Source: Oscillospiraceae bacterium (lineage in GTDB: Bacteria; Bacillota; Clostridia; UBA1212; SIG427). Taken from it: a stretch of 64,000 bases of DNA. Position numbers and translations under genes: made by a program. The stretch spans positions 19,643 through 83,642 of the forward strand of contig SVJE01000006.1 of NCBI GenBank assembly GCA_015069135.1. The letters run 5' to 3'. The stretch's first letter is position 1. The number at the start of each line of letters is the position of its first letter. The notes beneath the pieces were generated by a model. It saw only the letters and a program-made list of their open reading frames with translations. It was not told where the DNA came from and did no database searches. Positions 19,956 to 32,553 of the stretch are shown here, one piece after another.

Positions 19956-20043
19956 GGAAGTAGTATGTGTTGTACTTCAAATAATATTCAAATTTGAAAA
20001 ATTTTGATATAATGAAAACACTACTTACATTAAGAGGTGTTAT

Positions 20044-21231
20044 ATGCAGGAAATTAAATGTCCTAAATGCGGAGAAGTGTTTCAGGTAGACCAGGCTGGC
20101 TATGCAGCTATTGTAAAGCAAGTAAGGGATACTGAATTTAATAAAGAGCTTTCAGAAAGAGAAGGCTTACTTAAAGAGCGTCAGCAGACTGCGGTTAAAC
20201 TTGCCCAGGCAGAAACTGCAGAAAAACTTAATGAGAAATTAAGTGAAAAAGAAAAGGAAATTGCTGAGCTTAAGGCTAAGCTTCTGGCCAGTGAAACTGA
20301 AAAGAAACTGGCAGTTACTGAAGCTGTAGCTTATAAAGATCAGGAGATTATAACCCTTAACAGTAAGATTCATACCAGTGAACAAGAAGCAAAACTTAAA
20401 GAACAGAATCTTAAAGAAAGTTATGAGCTTAAGCTTAAGAGTAAAGACGAGGAAGTGGCATTTTACAAAGATCTTAAAGCAAAGCAATCCACTAAGATGG
20501 TGGGGGAAACTCTTGAACAACATTGTGAAATTGAATTTAACAGGTTAAGAGCTACCGGCTTTAAGAATGCCTATTTTGAAAAAGATAACGATGCCAGAAG
20601 TGGTAGTAAAGGTGACTACATTTTCAGGGATTTTGATGATAACAGAATGGAGTTTATCTCAATTATGTTTGAAATGAAAAATGAAATGGATGAAACTGCC
20701 ACAAAACATAAAAACGAAGATTTTCTTAAAGAGCTTGATAAGGACCGTAGAGAGAAAAACTGTGAATATGCTGTTTTGGTTTCCTTACTGGAAGCAGACA
20801 GTGAGCTGTACAATTCCGGTATTGTTGATATGTCTCATCGCTATGAAAAAATGTATGTTATCCGTCCCCAGTTCTTTATTCCTATGATTACACTGCTTCG
20901 TAATGCGGCACTTAATTCTTTGGAATACAAACAGGAATTGGTAACAGTGCAGAATCAGAATATAGACATATCTAATTTTGAAAATGAAATAAATGATTTC
21001 AAAACAAAATTTGCATACAACTACAGACTTGCCAGTGATAAGTTTAAAAAGGCTATAGACGAGATTGATAAGACTATTGACCATTTACAGAAAACAAAAG
21101 AGGCTTTATTGTCATCAGAAAATAATTTAAGATTAGCTAACAACAAAGCTGAGGATTTGACTATTAAAAAGCTTACAAGAAATAATCCTACAATGGCTGC
21201 TAAGTTTGCTGAATTAAAAGAGGAAGAATAA
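20044..21231 (+). CDS. DUF2130-family protein (N-terminal zinc ribbon + long coiled coil)
   Basis: [28 protein letters not shown] followed by a Glu/Lys-rich heptad region. First gene of a five-gene operon. Confidence 0.55.
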
Positions 21232-22227
21232 ATGCCATTAAAAATAATCAGACAGGATATAACTAAAATAAAGGCAGATGCCATAGTAAACCCCACCAAC
21301 AAGTATATGAGGCCCGGTGGGGGAACTGATGCTGCCATTCATAAAGCTGCCGGCAAGAAACTTATGATGGAATGTATTTCTTTAGGCGAATGTCCTGAAG
21401 GAGAGGCTCGAATAACAAAAGGCTATAATCTCCCAAGTAAATACGTTATACATACTGCAGGTCCGGTGTGGAGAGACGGGCAGTGTGGTGAAAAGGAAAT
21501 TTTGGAATCTTGCTATAGAGAATGTCTTAATTTAGCTGCTGAATATAAATTAGAAAGCATTGCTTTTCCATTAATATCTTCGGGGTTGTATGGTTTTCCT
21601 AAAGACAGTGTGCTTAAAATAGCTATACAAGTTATAGGTCAGTTTTTGTTTGAAAATGAGATTGATGTATATATAGTTGTGTTTGATAAAACTGCTTATC
21701 AGCTTAGTGAGAAACTTTTTAAGGATGTTACTTCATACATTGATGATAACTATGTGGATGAACATTCGGATTGTTTTGCAAGAACTTATAGTATGCCTTC
21801 AGTTGGAATGGCTTATAGTTGTCCTTCTCCGGTTGACTGTTGCAGCGTAGAAAAAAAGGCAGATTTAGATTCCATGCTTGACAACTTAGATGAAAGTTTT
21901 TCTCAGATGTTGCTTCGCAAAATAGATGAAAAGGGCATGACGGATGTACAGTGCTATAAAAAAGCAAATATCAACAGAAAACTTTTTTCGAAAATCAGAA
22001 GCGATGTAAACTATAAGCCCAGCAAACCTACCGTAATTGCTTTTGCTGTTTCTCTGGAGTTAACACTTGAGGAAACAGAAGAAATGCTTAAAAAGGCTGG
22101 TTTTGCCCTTTCTCACAGCAATAAGTTTGATATTATAATTGAATTCTTTATAACTAACGGCAAATATGATATTTTTGAAATAAACGAGACTTTATTTGCC
22201 TTTGACCAAAGTTTGTTAGGAGCGTGA
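21232..22227 (+). CDS. Macro-domain protein (ADP-ribose binding / O-acetyl-ADP-ribose deacetylase-like) fused to C-terminal XRE-type HTH
   Basis: Macro motifs NPTN...GGGTDAAIHKAAG, KYVIHTAGPVW and IAFPLISSGLYGFP. The C-terminal ~90 aa (LLRKIDEKGMTDVQCYKKANINRKLFSKIRSD) resembles a Cro/C1 HTH. The start codon abuts the previous stop. Confidence 0.7.
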   Translation: MPLKIIRQDITKIKADAIVNPTNKYMRPGGGTDAAIHKAAGKKLMMECISLGECPEGEARITKGYNLPSKYVIHTAGPVWRDGQCGEKEILESCYRECLNLAAEYKLESIAFPLISSGLYGFPKDSVLKIAIQVIGQFLFENEIDVYIVVFDKTAYQLSEKLFKDVTSYIDDNYVDEHSDCFARTYSMPSVGMAYSCPSPVDCCSVEKKADLDSMLDNLDESFSQMLLRKIDEKGMTDVQCYKKANINRKLFSKIRSDVNYKPSKPTVIAFAVSLELTLEETEEMLKKAGFALSHSNKFDIIIEFFITNGKYDIFEINETLFAFDQSLLGA

Positions 22228-22231
22228 AAAT

Positions 22232-22582
22232 ATGGTTAAATTTATTTGTTATCCCAAATGTACTACTTGTCAGAAAGCTAAAAAATGGCTGGATGATAAT
22301 AGTGTTGAATATGAATTAAGAGATATAAAGCTTGATAATCCTTCTCTTAAAGAATTGGAGCATTGGTATAAATTAAGCGGACAACCATTAAAGAAGTTTT
22401 ATAATACCAGCGGTCTTTTATACAAGTCCATGGCCATTAAAGATAAACTTCCTTCTATGAGTGATGAGGAAATGCTTAAACTTCTGGCTTCAGACGGAAT
22501 GTTGGTTAAAAGGCCTTTGGTCATAGGAGATGATTTTGTTCTTATAGGCTTTAAGGAAGCAGAGTGGAAATGTCTCCTGTGA
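22232..22582 (+). CDS. ArsC/Spx-family thioredoxin-fold protein
   Basis: MVKFICYPKCTTCQKAKKWL has an N-terminal CxxC like Spx, YffB or ArsC. 116 aa. Confidence 0.6.
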   Translation: MVKFICYPKCTTCQKAKKWLDDNSVEYELRDIKLDNPSLKELEHWYKLSGQPLKKFYNTSGLLYKSMAIKDKLPSMSDEEMLKLLASDGMLVKRPLVIGDDFVLIGFKEAEWKCLL

Positions 22583-22672
22583 AGCGACCTTTTGTATTAA
22601 TATAACCTGTAAAATGTGATTGTAAGGTTATTAAACCTGCAATCACATTTTTATTTTATCGGAGGTTATATT

Positions 22673-23323
22673 ATGAAAAACAACATTACTGAATTAGTAT
22701 TTATTTTGGACAGAAGCGGTTCTATGGCAGGATTGGAAGCTGACACTATCGGTGGATTTAACTCAATGATTGAAAAGCAGAAGAAACTTGATGATAAGTG
22801 TTATGTATCAACGGTGCTTTTTGACAGTGTTAGTGAAGTGCTTCACGACAGAGTGGAACTTAGGGATATTAAGCCTATGACGGAAGACGAATATTTTACC
22901 AGAGGATGTACCGCACTTCTTGATGCCATTGGCGGTGCCATTCACCATATAGGAAATATTCACAAATATGCCCGCCCTGAAGATGTGCCTGAGCACACAA
23001 TGTTTGTAATCACCACAGACGGAATGGAGAATGCCAGTCACAAATATTCTTCAAGAAAAGTTAAGGCAATGATAGAAAGACAGAAAGAAAAGTATGGCTG
23101 GGAGTTTATATTCATAGGTGCAAACATTGACGCTGTGGAAACAGCAGCCAGGTATGGAATAGCACCTGAACGAGCTGTTAATTACAACGCAGATAAAGAA
23201 GGCACCAAGGTTTTGTATCAGACTGTTTCTAAGGCAGTGGGCCAGGTAAGATGTTCTGCACCGTTAGATGACAGCTGGAGTATGGACATTGATAATGATT
23301 ACAAAAAGAGAGGGAAGAAATAA
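22673..23323 (+). CDS. von Willebrand factor type A domain protein
   Basis: MIDAS motif DRSGSM plus downstream T and D positions. GGAGG RBS in front of ATG 22673. Confidence 0.6.
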   Translation: MKNNITELVFILDRSGSMAGLEADTIGGFNSMIEKQKKLDDKCYVSTVLFDSVSEVLHDRVELRDIKPMTEDEYFTRGCTALLDAIGGAIHHIGNIHKYARPEDVPEHTMFVITTDGMENASHKYSSRKVKAMIERQKEKYGWEFIFIGANIDAVETAARYGIAPERAVNYNADKEGTKVLYQTVSKAVGQVRCSAPLDDSWSMDIDNDYKKRGKK

Positions 23324-24141
23324 TGAAGAAAACAAAATTAGCAGGTGAAATTTTAGGAGATGTTGTAGGATCTGTGTATGAATTTGATAACATTAAAACA
23401 AAAGAGTTTCCTTTGTTTGGCAAGTATTGTATGTTCACTGATGATACAGTTCTTACATTGGCAGTAGCCAAGTCTTTGTGTGAGACTGATGCTCATAAGG
23501 ATATTGAAGATTTTAAGAAGAGGTTGGTTTATAATATGCATCTTTTAGGACATGAATATCCTGATGCAGGTTTTGGGGGAAGATTTATGAATTGGCTGGA
23601 AACAGGAAACAAGGAACCGTATAACAGCTGTGGTAACGGCTCTGCTATGAGAGTTTCTCCTGTTGGCTGGTATGCTGAAAGTTTAGAAGAGGCAGAAGCC
23701 CTTGCTACAGCCTCTGCAGAAGTTACTCATAATCATCCTGAAGGAATTAAGGGTGCCGTTTCAGTGGCAGGAGCTATTTATCTTGCAAGAACAGGGGTCG
23801 GTAAAAAGGAAATCTATGAATATTGTAAAAAGTTCTATAATCTTGATTTTACTTTAGATGAAATCAGACCCACATATTATTTTGTGGAAACTTGTCAGGA
23901 AAGTGTACCTCAGGCATTAGTAGCTTTTTTTGAAAGTGAATCATTTGAGGATGCCATAAGAAATGCAATTTCTATAGGTGGTGACAGTGACACTATAGCT
24001 GCTATTACAGGATCTATAGCAGAGGCATTTTACGGCATTGACGAAGATCTTGAAGAAGCAGCCCTTTCATATCTGGATGAGAGATTGCTTAATATTGTGG
24101 ATTTGTTTGCAGATAAAATAAGGGACACCCAAAACCGATAA
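23323..24141 (+). CDS. ADP-ribosylglycohydrolase (DraG/ARH family)
   Basis: GDVVGSVYEF, CGNGSAMRVSPVG and GGDSDTIAAITG blocks are typical of the ARH fold. Start overlaps the vWA stop (TAATG). Confidence 0.75.
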   Translation: MKKTKLAGEILGDVVGSVYEFDNIKTKEFPLFGKYCMFTDDTVLTLAVAKSLCETDAHKDIEDFKKRLVYNMHLLGHEYPDAGFGGRFMNWLETGNKEPYNSCGNGSAMRVSPVGWYAESLEEAEALATASAEVTHNHPEGIKGAVSVAGAIYLARTGVGKKEIYEYCKKFYNLDFTLDEIRPTYYFVETCQESVPQALVAFFESESFEDAIRNAISIGGDSDTIAAITGSIAEAFYGIDEDLEEAALSYLDERLLNIVDLFADKIRDTQNR

Positions 24142-24172: not shown

Positions 24173-24221
24173 AAGGAACCCAAAGTTGTAAAGTTTTACT
24201 TCGTTGGGTTCCTCTTTTTTT
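24173..24221 (+). terminator. Terminator of the five-gene operon
   Basis: GGAACCCAA, 20-nt loop, TTGGGTTCC, followed by T8. Confidence 0.6.
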
Positions 24222-24242: not shown

Positions 24243-24288
24243 GTAAAAAGGAACCCAAATGTGGTGCTTTTTTTGTTTTGGGTTCCCT
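24243..24288 (-). terminator. Terminator for the minus-strand GTPase-like gene
   Basis: Minus strand GGGAACCCAAA...TTTGGGTTCC followed by TTTTT. Confidence 0.6.
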
Positions 24289-24299
24289 AAATACTGATA

Positions 24300-24827
24300 T
24301 TATTTTTCTAAAATTACATTAACTAATTCTTCAATTGAATCTCCCCAGTTTTCATCAGGGAATGAGATGGCTTTTTCTGCAGAACCACGGACTATTGGAG
24401 CTTTGCCGGTATAGCCGTATTCTTCCAACAGGTTTTGCACATCTTCAGGAATGGCATCGTATAAAAATTCATCCTCATAAAAATCTTCCTGAAATATATC
24501 ATATTTGCTTAAGTACATTACAATTTTATTTATACCATTTTCAAGGCACAGCTTTATTTGTTGTCTGGTACCTCCCATGGCACCTTCTGCCTGTGGGCAT
24601 ACCAAAACTACAACATCAATATCACATTTGTAATTTTCAAAGAAATCTTCGTATTGATAGTCCCCTGAAAAATCAAAAAAATTAAGCATTTTACCCTTTA
24701 AGCTAAGGGTAGTTAAAGAAGTGCCTTCCATAGGCTCGTTAACCCGTATGGTTTCCGAATCAAGTCCCAATCTTTTGTTAAGTACAACTGAAATTGCTTT
24801 GTTAAGAGTTGTTTTGCCATGATCCAA
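24300..24827 (-). CDS. Stand-alone EF-Tu domain-I-like GTP-binding protein (G domain only)
   Basis: Aligns to the EF-Tu G domain: G1 (GN)LDHGKTTL, G3 DFSGD (EF-Tu DCPGH), G4 SKYD (EF-Tu NKCD), G5 SAEKA. Ends where EF-Tu domain I ends. The only canonical start is TTG 24827, inside the P-loop. An in-frame ATT/ATA lies 2-5 nt after the upstream stop. Confidence 0.55.
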   Translation of the reverse strand: MDHGKTTLNKAISVVLNKRLGLDSETIRVNEPMEGTSLTTLSLKGKMLNFFDFSGDYQYEDFFENYKCDIDVVVLVCPQAEGAMGGTRQQIKLCLENGINKIVMYLSKYDIFQEDFYEDEFLYDAIPEDVQNLLEEYGYTGKAPIVRGSAEKAISFPDENWGDSIEELVNVILEK

Positions 24828-31644: not shown

Positions 31645-32553
31645 ATGAAGTTTTTATCCGTTAAAGAGGTGGCGAAAATATGGAACACATCTGAGCGAAG
31701 TGTTCGGAATTATTGTTCTACAGGCCGTGTTCCCGGTGCTTTCCTAACAGGTAAGACCTGGAGTATTCCGGGAAATGCCGAGAAACCTGAAAGAAGTAAT
31801 AAAAGTAAACCTGCACCGCAAACCTTACTTGATATATTAAGAGAGGAAAAGCGTAGCCAAGTTCACGGCGGTATTTATCATAAAATACAGATTGAGCTTA
31901 CCTACAACTCCAATCATATTGAAGGAAGCCGACTTACCCACGATCAGACACGGTATATCTTTGAAACCAATACTATTGGTATTACTGATGAAGGTATTCG
32001 TGTGGATGATATTATAGAAACATCTACTCATTTCCGCTGTATAGATGAAATTATTGAAAATGCAAAAGTACCACTTTCCGAAAAGTTGATAAAACACTTG
32101 CATTTTATATTAAAGACCGGCACAAGTGATGCAAAAAAAGAGTGGTTTGTGGTTGGCGATTACAAAAAACTGCCTAACGAGGTAGGGGGCAAGGAAACTA
32201 CACTTCCTGAAAATGTGTCGAAGGAAATGAGAAAACTTCTTGACGAGTATAACAGTAAGGAAAACAAAACTCTTGAGGATATCATAGACTTCCACGTACG
32301 GTTTGAGAATATCCACCCATTCCAAGATGGTAATGGTCGTGTTGGCAGGTTGATAATGTTTAAGGAATGTCTTAAATATGGTATTGTTCCGTTTATTATT
32401 GAAGATAAAATAAAAATGTTCTATTACAGGGGCCTTAAAGAGTGGGAGCAGGAAAAAGGATATCTTATGGATACATGTCTTACGGCTCAGGATACATTTA
32501 AAAAGTATTTAGATTATTTTAGGATAACATATAACAACGAAACTGAAGTGTGA
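31645..32553 (+). CDS. Fic family protein (AMPylator fold) with N-terminal excisionase-type HTH
   Basis: Fic motif HPFQDGNGRVGR. Candidate auto-inhibitory motif SNHIEG (S/TxxxEG/N, class II). N-terminal HTH_17-like MKFLSVKEVAKIWNTSERSVRNY. Confidence 0.8.
   Translation: MKFLSVKEVAKIWNTSERSVRNYCSTGRVPGAFLTGKTWSIPGNAEKPERSNKSKPAPQTLLDILREEKRSQVHGGIYHKIQIELTYNSNHIEGSRLTHDQTRYIFETNTIGITDEGIRVDDIIETSTHFRCIDEIIENAKVPLSEKLIKHLHFILKTGTSDAKKEWFVVGDYKKLPNEVGGKETTLPENVSKEMRKLLDEYNSKENKTLEDIIDFHVRFENIHPFQDGNGRVGRLIMFKECLKYGIVPFIIEDKIKMFYYRGLKEWEQEKGYLMDTCLTAQDTFKKYLDYFRITYNNETEV

Follow-up and report, generated by a model that had tools for sequence, protein, structure and literature searches.

The five-gene cluster at positions 20044-24141 of a 64,000-nt stretch of Oscillospiraceae DNA (contig SVJE01000006.1; the whole stretch is hereafter called the window) has a two-gene conserved core, formed by a gene for a macrodomain fused to a helix-turn-helix domain (macro-HTH) and a gene for a von Willebrand factor A domain protein (vWA). 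This core recurs widely as a cassette on the plasmids, integrative elements and phages of gut bacteria, and the genes for an ArsC/Spx-like protein, an ADP-ribosylhydrolase (ARH) and a DUF2130 protein are its optional companions. A palindrome, GTCGC-N7-GCGAC, is found upstream of vWA in essentially every locus, and we propose, with a probability of about 0.5, that macro-HTH is an ADP-ribose-sensing regulator of the promoter of vWA, or of vWA and ARH, in a modular ADP-ribosylation-reversal cassette on mobile elements.

Conservation and distribution of the macro-HTH/vWA core

Loci related to the window cluster, labelled with L-numbers (L004, L186 and so on), were picked by similarity to the window proteins, many of them from metagenome-assembled genomes, and their counts are not an unbiased census; the presence of a gene in a locus is as set by tblastn thresholds. 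A macro-HTH-anchored set comprised 80 loci from different GTDB species (macro-HTH identity 56-66%), a DUF2130-anchored set comprised 80 metagenome loci, and a vWA-anchored set was drawn from viral contigs, for which a separate palindrome-only scan was also made. Domains were searched in Pfam, NCBIfam, PADLOC-DB v2, PHROG and Rfam, and AlphaFold2 (AF2) models were compared with the PDB by Foldseek.

The vWA gene lay downstream of macro-HTH, on the same strand, in 64/80 species-level loci; among the 16 loci lacking it, eight end within 450 nt of macro-HTH and only four have more than 3 kb of downstream sequence. An ArsC/Spx-like gene (73-80% identity) stood between macro-HTH and vWA in 33/80 loci, ARH was present in three and DUF2130 in none of the 80; for genome loci the share with ARH is put at about 5-10%. 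Clustering of all neighbours in these 80 loci revealed no gene family besides vWA and ArsC in more than 12 of them, and no conserved gene upstream of macro-HTH or downstream of vWA. When genome, plasmid and viral loci were compared, the stretch from macro-HTH to vWA proved to be a cargo hotspot: the two genes were adjacent in 22 loci, separated by ArsC only in 7, by ArsC together with other genes in 21, and by other genes only in 37.

The order macro-HTH, (ArsC), vWA, (ARH) recurred in more than 100 loci from other species. ARH was an immediate neighbour of vWA, on one side or the other, in more than 15 loci, the two genes overlapping or lying a few nucleotides apart in L170, L186, L190, L201, L203, L207, L209-L211, L213, L215 and L216. 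Locus L186 has the order of the window (macro-HTH, ArsC, vWA, ARH), and L170 reads macro-HTH, vWA, ARH, DUF2130. An ARH-anchored scan of viral contigs, a method that reaches near relatives only, gave no close relatives. In the nearest relatives of the window cluster, L217 and L218 (macro-HTH 84% and 72% identical), DUF2130 (88-90% identical) abuts macro-HTH at 0 nt and is followed by ArsC. All five genes together were found in the window lineage only, where the identical cluster is present on 23 contigs, and four of the five occur elsewhere in two different orders. The original prediction had treated the five genes as one set, to be abandoned if they were never co-localised in other genomes; macro-HTH, vWA, ArsC and ARH are indeed linked across genomes, but there is no obligate five-gene system, as DUF2130 was absent from all 80 macro-HTH-anchored loci.

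The variable neighbours of the core included tyrosine integrases, serine recombinases, a relaxase and MobC, defence-type genes (Fic, GmrSD, Hachiman, BREX and restriction-modification genes), and genes for Tag, YjbR, a Y-family polymerase, peptide deformylase, ASCH and methyltransferases. The macro-HTH/vWA pair was located on Selenomonas pSRC2, on a Peptoclostridium and a Niallia megaplasmid, and in a complete Heliusvirales phage genome. Four of the five window proteins matched PHROG families, and macro-HTH and vWA each gave at least 8000 matches in a 90%-identity cluster search. Across many Clostridia families macro-HTH retained 56-66% identity and vWA about 60-84%, suggesting horizontal spread.

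The control element upstream of vWA

Exact copies of the palindrome numbered 75 in 1.31 Mb of related loci; 69 of them were situated 73-136 nt before the vWA start and none was upstream of macro-HTH, where a search for a sign of autoregulation also gave no motif common to the loci. A TAnnnT hexamer, mostly TACAAT or TATAAT, was placed exactly 20 nt after GCGACC in 87/90 unique leaders (each other offset, at most 14/90), and this spacing was kept although the surrounding sequence types differ widely. Taking the hexamer as a -10 box therefore puts the centre of the palindrome at about -42; no -35 consensus was visible in the leaders.

The window carries a one-mismatch copy, GTCTC-N7-GCGAC(C), at 22572-22589, which is the sole match with one mismatch or fewer to GTCGC-N7-GCGACC in the window and a candidate operator of macro-HTH. 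Its left half-site overlaps the final ArsC codons, its GCGACC occupies 22584-22589, and a -10-like hexamer, TAAAAT, follows on the plus strand at 22610-22615, exactly 20 nt further on. A plus-strand hairpin with a U-run, a putative terminator and translational insulator, extends over 22599-22672 (inner stem 22610-22650); it has a folding energy of -28.9 kcal/mol (z -6.4), none of 200 shuffled sequences was as stable, and the vWA Shine-Dalgarno sequence (GGAGG, 22661-22665) is paired within its outer stem. The control element as a whole thus covers 22572-22672, and corresponding examples are found at L037 12551-12625 and L016 11385-11459. In related leaders the hairpin encloses and follows the hexamer, its arms vary in sequence, the 3' side includes the vWA Shine-Dalgarno sequence, and a U-run comes after it. 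No Rfam family matched the leader; two chance-level miRNA matches were obtained in the window and none in L037.

Where macro-HTH and vWA are adjacent, the element starts 5-10 nt past the macro-HTH stop codon, and in L088, L184 and L188 separate copies precede ARH and vWA. Among viral-contig loci whose vWA is at least 62% identical to that of the window, 18/20 had both the palindrome and a macro-HTH gene upstream of vWA; neither was present in any of the five distant vWA loci for which the whole upstream flank was available (5/5), nor at the locus of a Fusobacterium vWA. The palindrome-only scan of viral contigs gave 18 matches, 13 of which had the arrangement macro-HTH, motif, vWA, with ARH overlapping the vWA end in at least nine of the 13. 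Four motif-only matches (L205, L208, L212 and L214) fell in GC-rich coding sequence and look like chance.

Some further copies stood apart from this arrangement. The one remaining match of the scan, on the minus strand of L200 (4811-4856), fits the palindrome and -10 pattern in full and lies in AT-rich sequence between genes of a phage tail module, ahead of an open reading frame (ORF) of 142 aa, on a contig with neither macro-HTH nor vWA; it may be a chance match or another gene under the same control. Orphan copies of palindrome, promoter and hairpin at L017 3180-3260 and L033 5464-5540, where vWA has been lost or replaced and, for the L033 copy, integrases are near, look like decayed cassettes. 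A single-stranded-DNA promoter of the Frpo-like type known from plasmid leading regions was also considered for the long hairpin and was rejected, because the gene-proximal arm does not contain the -10 box, which falls in the loop or 5' arm, and the stems are too short for both boxes.

The macro-HTH protein

The macro-HTH gene (21232-22227, plus strand; supported by its ORF, Pfam and AF2/Foldseek) encodes a MacroD-type macrodomain (aa 1-165), a Cys-rich linker and an HTH domain of the XRE/Cro-C1 type (aa ~212-331). The Macro profile PF01661 matched aa 19-131 over its whole length (E 2e-40, 138 bits vs a cut-off of 22). In an alignment to human MacroD2 the motifs N-x6-GGG-T-D-x3-H and S-G-L-Y-G were kept, AIVNPTNKYMRPGGGTDAAIH aligning with MacroD2 AIVNAANASLLGGGGVDGCIH and ISSGLYGFP with ISTGIYGFP, and these motifs are conserved throughout the macro-HTH family. 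The best NCBIfam matches were O-acetyl-ADP-ribose deacetylase models, with equivalog scores below the cut-offs; assignment to the YmdB-type O-acetyl-ADP-ribose deacetylase equivalog (NF001664) was rejected at 162 bits vs 200. The intact active site suggests that the macrodomain responds to ADP-ribose or to ADP-ribosylated substrates.

No Pfam HTH profile matched the window protein at E ≤ 0.01, and a few relatives of its C-terminal domain matched HTH_26, HTH_19 or HTH_3. The AF2 model of residues ~200-331 is a helical domain of high confidence (pLDDT 84.7), with two helices in addition to the HTH, and its best Foldseek matches in the PDB were C.Esp1396I, SinR, DdrO, 434 Cro and CapH. The top 50 matches were nearly all of the XRE family (target-normalised TM 0.7-0.8, rmsd ~2-3 Å), with E-values that are weak (0.03-0.4) because the domain is small. 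Compared with the copies on mobile elements, this C-terminal domain is 83% identical and the macrodomain 61%, and the recognition-helix region NIDRKLFSKIRSD is almost invariant among macro-HTH homologues.

The HTH domain was found in 6610 clusters at 50% identity and was nearly always C-terminal. A Pfam Macro domain was present on 40/150 of its top representatives, the N-termini of which were a mixture of truncated, degenerate and chimeric forms. The same domain (aa 207-326; window 21850-22210) matched the C-terminus of the phage family phrog_4031 (positions 503-623 of 626), and the DNA-binding module is therefore joined in phages to other, larger N-terminal regions. A 549-aa variant encoded at L007 6001-7650 (P0002) has two tandem macrodomains ahead of the same HTH domain; the L007 element also carries relaxase/MobC, a giant SNF2-family protein, a Y-family polymerase and BREX.

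The vWA, ARH, ArsC/Spx-like and DUF2130 proteins

The vWA gene (22673-23323, plus strand, with an ATG start) was assigned by fold and by its metal-ion-dependent adhesion site (MIDAS). A start at the GTG at 22616 is unlikely because homologues begin at the same MKNN as the ATG at 22673. Profile scores were below the Pfam cut-offs (vWA-TerF-like 24.3 vs 29.4 bits, E 4e-5; VWA 16.5 vs 23.8 bits), and the AF2 model has a pLDDT of 64 and a pTM of 0.69. Foldseek returned 155 PDB matches at E ≤ 1e-3, and all among the matches listed were vWA domains (TRAP, CMG2, integrin I domains, BatB). The MIDAS residues D13, S15, S17, T80 and D116 (D13-R-S15-G-S17) are invariant among 26 homologues. The protein is a small, stand-alone vWA resembling YegL/TerY, belongs with the phrog_7371-type family, and has relatives in 217 phage records. 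A homologue 57% identical on the Fusobacterium animalis plasmid pSB029A (L219 4893-5630), with neither macro-HTH nor the palindrome nearby, has a signal-peptide-like N-terminal extension and may be an exported version of the same family.

The ARH gene (23323-24141, plus strand; ORF and Pfam) encodes a protein matched by PF03747 (E 9e-40, 137.6 bits vs a cut-off of 26.2). Its E20, D40-D41-T42 and GGDSDT align with the Mg-site residues of ARH3, which we take to be E41, D77/D78 and D314/D316/T317. The DraG (TIGR02662; 70.8 vs 337 bits) and Tri1 (NF041672; 54.3 vs 490 bits) equivalogs were both rejected.

The ArsC/Spx-like gene (22232-22582, plus strand) was called from its ORF and from TIGR01617 and PF03960. 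Its product passed the cut-off of the Spx/MgsR-ArsC-related subfamily TIGR01617 (94 vs 75.05 bits) and matched PF03960 (E 5e-16) and phrog_16693; it is a thioredoxin-fold protein with C10-T-T-C13 near the N-terminus. Spx proper (NF002459, 56 vs 123 bits) and the arsenate reductase ArsC (TIGR00014, 34 vs 106 bits) were rejected.

The DUF2130 gene (20044-21231, plus strand; ORF and Pfam) matched PF09903 (E 1e-92, 310 bits vs a cut-off of 26.7). Its product consists, in order, of an N-terminal CxxC zinc ribbon, a coiled coil, a PD-(D/E)XK core (GD...E-M-K) and a C-terminal coiled coil. The CxxC ribbon, G-D(190)...E(209)-M-K(211) and an upstream E were at least 97% conserved in 79 homologues, and the family is listed in the PD-(D/E)XK superfamily census (PMC3424549); a PDB sequence search returned coiled-coil noise only. 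By these motifs the protein is a predicted PD-(D/E)XK nuclease, an accessory and lineage-specific member of the cluster.

In the DUF2130-anchored set, 76/80 loci had no ADP-ribose gene nearby, and in 3/80 a Macro-PARG fusion came directly after DUF2130 (L141 2182-3537, L150 8317-9199 and L161 2592-3086). Both the Macro and the microbial-type PARG catalytic domain were confirmed in L141 and L150, and the macro part alone was detected in L161. This pairing is a second independent link of the predicted nuclease family with ADP-ribose erasers. A microbial-type PARG gene also lies just upstream of macro-HTH at L004 5144-5992, beside Hachiman (HamA and helicase), which shows that the cassette can also take up a third eraser fold.

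The domain calls of the original prediction stood up well: the macrodomain and ARH have intact catalytic residues, the macro C-terminus has an XRE fold, the vWA has a MIDAS, and the Spx/ArsC-like redoxin and DUF2130 coiled-coil assignments were borne out. Its suggestion that an ADP-ribosyltransferase (ART) is hidden in DUF2130 was not, since Pfam, NCBIfam and PADLOC gave no ART match to this protein and its conserved core is a nuclease motif.

Transcription units and neighbouring genes of the window

The five ORFs are co-directional, as originally described, with intergenic gaps of 0, 4, 90 and -1 nt and a Shine-Dalgarno sequence at every junction. The DUF2130/macro-HTH junction is TAA|ATG (0 nt), macro-HTH and ArsC are separated by 4 nt with an AGGAG ribosome-binding site, and the vWA stop and ARH start overlap by 1 nt (TAATG). 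The 90-nt gap before vWA holds the stable hairpin with its U-run, the conserved palindrome and the -10 box. Owing to these signals the cluster probably consists of two transcription units, DUF2130-macroHTH-ArsC followed by vWA-ARH, and an internal terminator and promoter probably divide the "textbook" single operon first proposed. The first unit may start at a promoter-like plus-strand site, TTGATA-16-TACATT at 20004-20031, upstream of DUF2130, which comes from a consensus scan only. The second unit is closed, as had been claimed for the whole cluster, by a terminator of its own on the plus strand at 24174-24221 (AGGAACCCAA...TTGGGTTCCT then CTTTTTTT, a hairpin and U-run); the fold of a 91-nt stretch in this region has an energy of -22.1 kcal/mol, and a simple terminator scan missed the hairpin because its loop is long.

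Two terminators, at 24174-24213 and 24250-24286, are arranged back-to-back between ARH and a GTPase-like gene; their stems are nearly alike (GGAACCCAA(A)...TTGGGTTCC) and may be a small repeated element. The GTPase-like gene (24300-24827, minus strand, convergent to the cluster) is a free-standing ORF of 175 aa that matches the EF-Tu-type GTPase domain (PF00009); for a translational GTPase this length is exceptionally small. A Fic-domain ORF is located about 8 kb from the cluster (31645-32553, plus strand) and is 32% identical to Fic/HTH_17 proteins that adjoin macro-HTH cassettes in 8/80 related loci. Redox genes, coding for a flavodiiron protein, a thioredoxin and a Crp-family regulator, are also among the neighbours. 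No ART was detected within about 6 kb on either side of the cluster, in agreement with the earlier statement that none is recognisable.

Proposed mechanism and alternative explanations

According to the mechanism that we propose, the macrodomain would bind or hydrolyse ADP-ribose or ADP-ribosylated substrates, and the HTH domain would bind GTCGC-N7-GCGAC as a dimer, centred at about -42, macro-HTH thereby acting as a one-component sensor and regulator. The vWA gene would be transcribed from the palindrome promoter, together with the overlapping ARH gene that follows it here and in many loci. The terminator hairpin would insulate vWA from upstream transcription, and would hide the vWA ribosome-binding site in read-through RNA and leave it accessible in promoter-derived RNA, where the site would be free because the 5' hairpin arm is missing; read-through RNA from upstream would thus terminate or be translationally silent. 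The MIDAS vWA would likely be a Mg2+-dependent, target-binding adaptor, translationally coupled to ARH. MacroD-type enzymes act on ADP-ribose esters of acidic residues or phosphate, and ARH-type enzymes on N- or O-glycosidic bonds to Arg or Ser. As no transferase is encoded, the modification would come from outside the cassette. The ArsC/Spx-like and DUF2130 genes would be optional accretions, all five genes having presumably become fixed in the chromosomal copy of this Ruminococcaceae lineage.

Several observations point to macro-HTH as the regulator. No other DNA-binding protein accompanies the element; conservation within macro-HTH is higher in the HTH domain (83%) than in the enzymatic one (61%); a near-invariant recognition helix parallels an invariant operator; and the position at about -42 is that of lambda cI at PRM and of restriction-modification C-proteins, the closest structural relatives of the domain. 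The binding of macro-HTH to the palindrome, its response to ADP-ribose, the role of vWA and a part of the cassette in conflicts are predictions; the domain identities, intact active sites, gene order, control element with its fixed geometry and carriage on mobile elements were observed. In a bolder form, which we regard as possible but short of an even chance, macro-HTH would be the first macrodomain-based one-component transcription factor, in which an active eraser domain senses ADP-ribosylation, or ADP-ribose released by NADases, and switches on vWA (and ARH) through a class-II-type operator in an abundant conflict cassette.

A number of points weigh against the regulatory reading. The binding of the HTH domain to the palindrome is a prediction, and the palindrome could instead be an RNA hairpin, three C-to-T variants of it retaining a G-U pair. 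The left half-site of the window copy has a mismatch, a -35 box is not evident, and the transcription start is a predicted one. The pairing of the hairpin with the Shine-Dalgarno sequence is statistically weak (88% vs 69% in shuffled controls). The element of L185 stands alone, the nearest 8 kb containing no macro-HTH, and the HTH domain occurs in thousands of clusters, with many top representatives lacking a recognisable macrodomain. The vWA model is of low confidence (pLDDT 64). When integrases and recombinases of related loci were used as queries, no mobility genes were detected near the window copy, the distant Fic homologue being the only match, and PADLOC-DB v2 gave no defence-system match for the five proteins, the one match obtained (15.7 bits) being spurious.

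The alternatives differ in what they contest, and the first of them concerns the beneficiary and is compatible with the regulatory mechanism. The cassette might serve the mobile elements as counter-defence, either by reversing the ADP-ribosylation made by host transferases (DarT on single-stranded DNA; mRNA- or protein-targeting ARTs) or by sensing ADP-ribose from NADase-type abortive-infection effectors, which we consider possible with the odds somewhat against it. Such a role is consistent with the relaxase/MobC, integrase, recombinase and phage contexts of the cassette, with the adjoining establishment, repair or anti-restriction type of cargo (Tag, YjbR, Y-family polymerase, ASCH and methyltransferases), with the PHROG matches of four of the five proteins and the 217 phage records of vWA relatives, and with the horizontal spread suggested by the identities across Clostridia families. 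However, neither a target nor an opposing transferase was found, the macrodomain is of the MacroD type and not of the DarT-reversing DarG/TARG1 type, the copies in the window, L217 and L218 look chromosomal and vertically inherited, and the literature searched on anti-defence genes of plasmid leading regions makes no mention of macrodomains.

The converse role, protection of a host or an element from incoming ADP-ribosylating enzymes (Alt/Mod-like ARTs of phages, or ART toxins that arrive through contact-dependent or type VI systems) with DUF2130 as a back-up nuclease effector, is rather doubtful. It is the model proposed for the ADP-ribosylglycohydrolase (ARG)-centric systems (Iyer, Burroughs, Anantharaman and Aravind 2022, Viruses 14:1977, section 3.8; PMC9503650), it resembles Tri1-type immunity, and the same parts recur here as in that published prediction: ARG, vWA, Macro, a nuclease of the restriction endonuclease (REase) fold and a sensor-HTH, with no transferase. 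The presence of cassettes beside Hachiman, BREX, GmrSD and restriction-modification genes, in regions resembling defence islands, would also be explained, as would the independent links of DUF2130 to Macro-PARG fusions and to the macroHTH-vWA-ARH set. Against it, the core found here is macro-HTH and vWA, not ARG with a phosphatase and a Nudix or WYL transcription factor; ARH and the nuclease are optional; PADLOC yielded no matches; and carriage in a complete phage genome suits host defence less well.

The third alternative contests the operator itself. The palindrome and hairpin would be an RNA-level element that either forms the 3' end, or terminator, of the preceding unit or is recognised by an RNA-binding factor, and the HTH domain would have some other target. 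Both structures can fold as RNA, the long-hairpin arms vary between loci yet still pair with the Shine-Dalgarno sequence, the G-U pair is preserved by the GTCGT variant in L068, L071 and L085, and, in loci with the two genes side by side, 5-10 nt separate the element from the macro-HTH stop. We nevertheless judge this unlikely: the stem sequence is invariant and does not covary, the strict 20-nt spacing to TAnnnT whatever the hairpin type is promoter-like and not RNA-fold-like, and the element has no Rfam family.

A housekeeping or stress module with no role in conflicts is improbable. Its function would be to clear O-acetyl-ADP-ribose, ADP-ribose-1''-phosphate or redox-linked endogenous mono-ADP-ribosylation, in the manner of the SirTM/macro/GcvH-L operon, with the ArsC/Spx-like protein as a thiol-redox link. 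The deacetylase models that head the NCBIfam matches, the frequency of the Spx/ArsC-family insert and the redox neighbours in the window speak for it, but all NCBIfam equivalog scores are below cut-offs, neither a sirtuin nor an endogenous transferase was present in the neighbourhoods inspected, and housekeeping genes do not typically move about on mobile elements, as this core does, between flanks that differ so much. Finally, a chance assembly of functionally unlinked genes, to which the mostly solitary DUF2130 (76/80 loci) and the widely varying flanks might point, is very improbable and, with regard to four of the genes, is contradicted already by the macro-HTH, (ArsC), vWA, (ARH) order in more than 100 loci, the abutting or overlapping start and stop codons, the grouping of four of the five in L186 as well as L170, and the DUF2130-macroHTH-ArsC arrangement kept in L217 and L218.

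Significance and comparison with known systems

ADP-ribosylation is coming to be seen as a main currency of conflict among bacteria, phages and plasmids, as in DarTG, CmdTAC, Thoeris, NADase systems and phage Alt/Mod; to our knowledge, erasers without a cognate writer are known only from computational prediction. The cassette probably plays a role in conflicts between bacteria and mobile elements, and the claim of a five-gene operon is better replaced by a two-gene regulatory core with optional erasers, redoxin and nuclease, probably in two transcription units. It offers a common and concrete test case, with a candidate operator, a predicted promoter and insulator, a putative sensor-regulator with an intact active site and two effectors, and would open the sensing and reversal of foreign ADP-ribosylation by cells or mobile elements to direct testing. 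A function would also be given to a vWA family lacking one (phrog_7371), which is present in hundreds of phage genomes.

Searches of the open-access literature gave no account of a macro-HTH/vWA cassette, in line with the initial view that the combination had not been described as a system; this view holds only in part, since a combination of ARG, vWA, Macro, REase and an ADP-ribose-sensing HTH has been predicted (PMC9503650). The ARG-centric systems of that study combine an ADP-ribosylglycohydrolase with a vWA or another chaperone, optional Macro or NADAR domains, REase nucleases and an ADP-ribose-sensing HTH regulator, have no cognate transferase, and are predicted to counter ADP-ribosylation; their core, found in actinobacteria, planctomycetes and proteobacteria, is ARG with a phosphatase and a Nudix- or WYL-HTH regulator, and a macro-HTH fusion goes unmentioned (PMC9503650). 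The window cluster resembles these systems in the overlap of its ARH and vWA genes, in having no ART within about 6 kb, and in a conserved core with variable accretions. It differs in that the core is macro-HTH and vWA with a palindromic promoter element, that ARG is optional, and that the hosts are plasmids, integrative elements and phages of Firmicutes. Neither a Nudix- or WYL-HTH regulator nor a phosphatase (rhodanese-phosphatase, calcineurin-like, HD or HAD) was detected in the window cluster, which is not counted as an ARG-centric member because its regulator is macro-HTH, with no Nudix or WYL domain and no coupled phosphatase.

As a proposed ADP-ribose-responsive regulator, macro-HTH is comparable to NrtR. 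NrtR is a Nudix-HTH, ADP-ribose-responsive repressor of NAD metabolism, the Nudix domain of which is usually catalytically dead. Unlike NrtR, with its Nudix domain, winged helix and NAD biosynthesis regulon, macro-HTH has a macro fold with intact motifs, an XRE HTH and a proposed vWA/ARH regulon. The geometry of the window palindrome is that of lambda cI at PRM and of C proteins, XRE dimers that act on promoters with a weak -35 box by binding a palindrome which overlaps the -35 region (centred near -42 for cI at OR2). C.Esp1396I is moreover among the top structural matches of the HTH domain; macro-HTH departs from both lambda cI and C.Esp1396I in its enzymatic sensor domain and in its operator sequence, and its corresponding function is a proposed one.

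With DarTG the cluster shares a macrodomain and a proposed setting of conflict; DarG, however, has a macrodomain of a different clade and is always paired with DarT, whereas the window cluster has neither DarT nor another ART. The SirTM/macro/GcvH-L/LplA2 operon of Staphylococcus and Streptococcus is likewise a compact Firmicute operon with a MacroD-type hydrolase and a connection to redox stress, but needs a sirtuin writer and a lipoyl-carrier target, neither of which is encoded in the cluster. DraG/DraT and Tri1/Tre1 have the same ARH fold and intact di-metal site, but the window ARH scores far below their equivalog cut-offs and has no partner transferase. The vWA protein, like YegL and the TerY of TerY-P triads, is a small cytoplasmic MIDAS vWA, and one source calls a homologue 'YegL'; unlike these, it has no associated kinase or PP2C phosphatase and scores below the Pfam cut-off.

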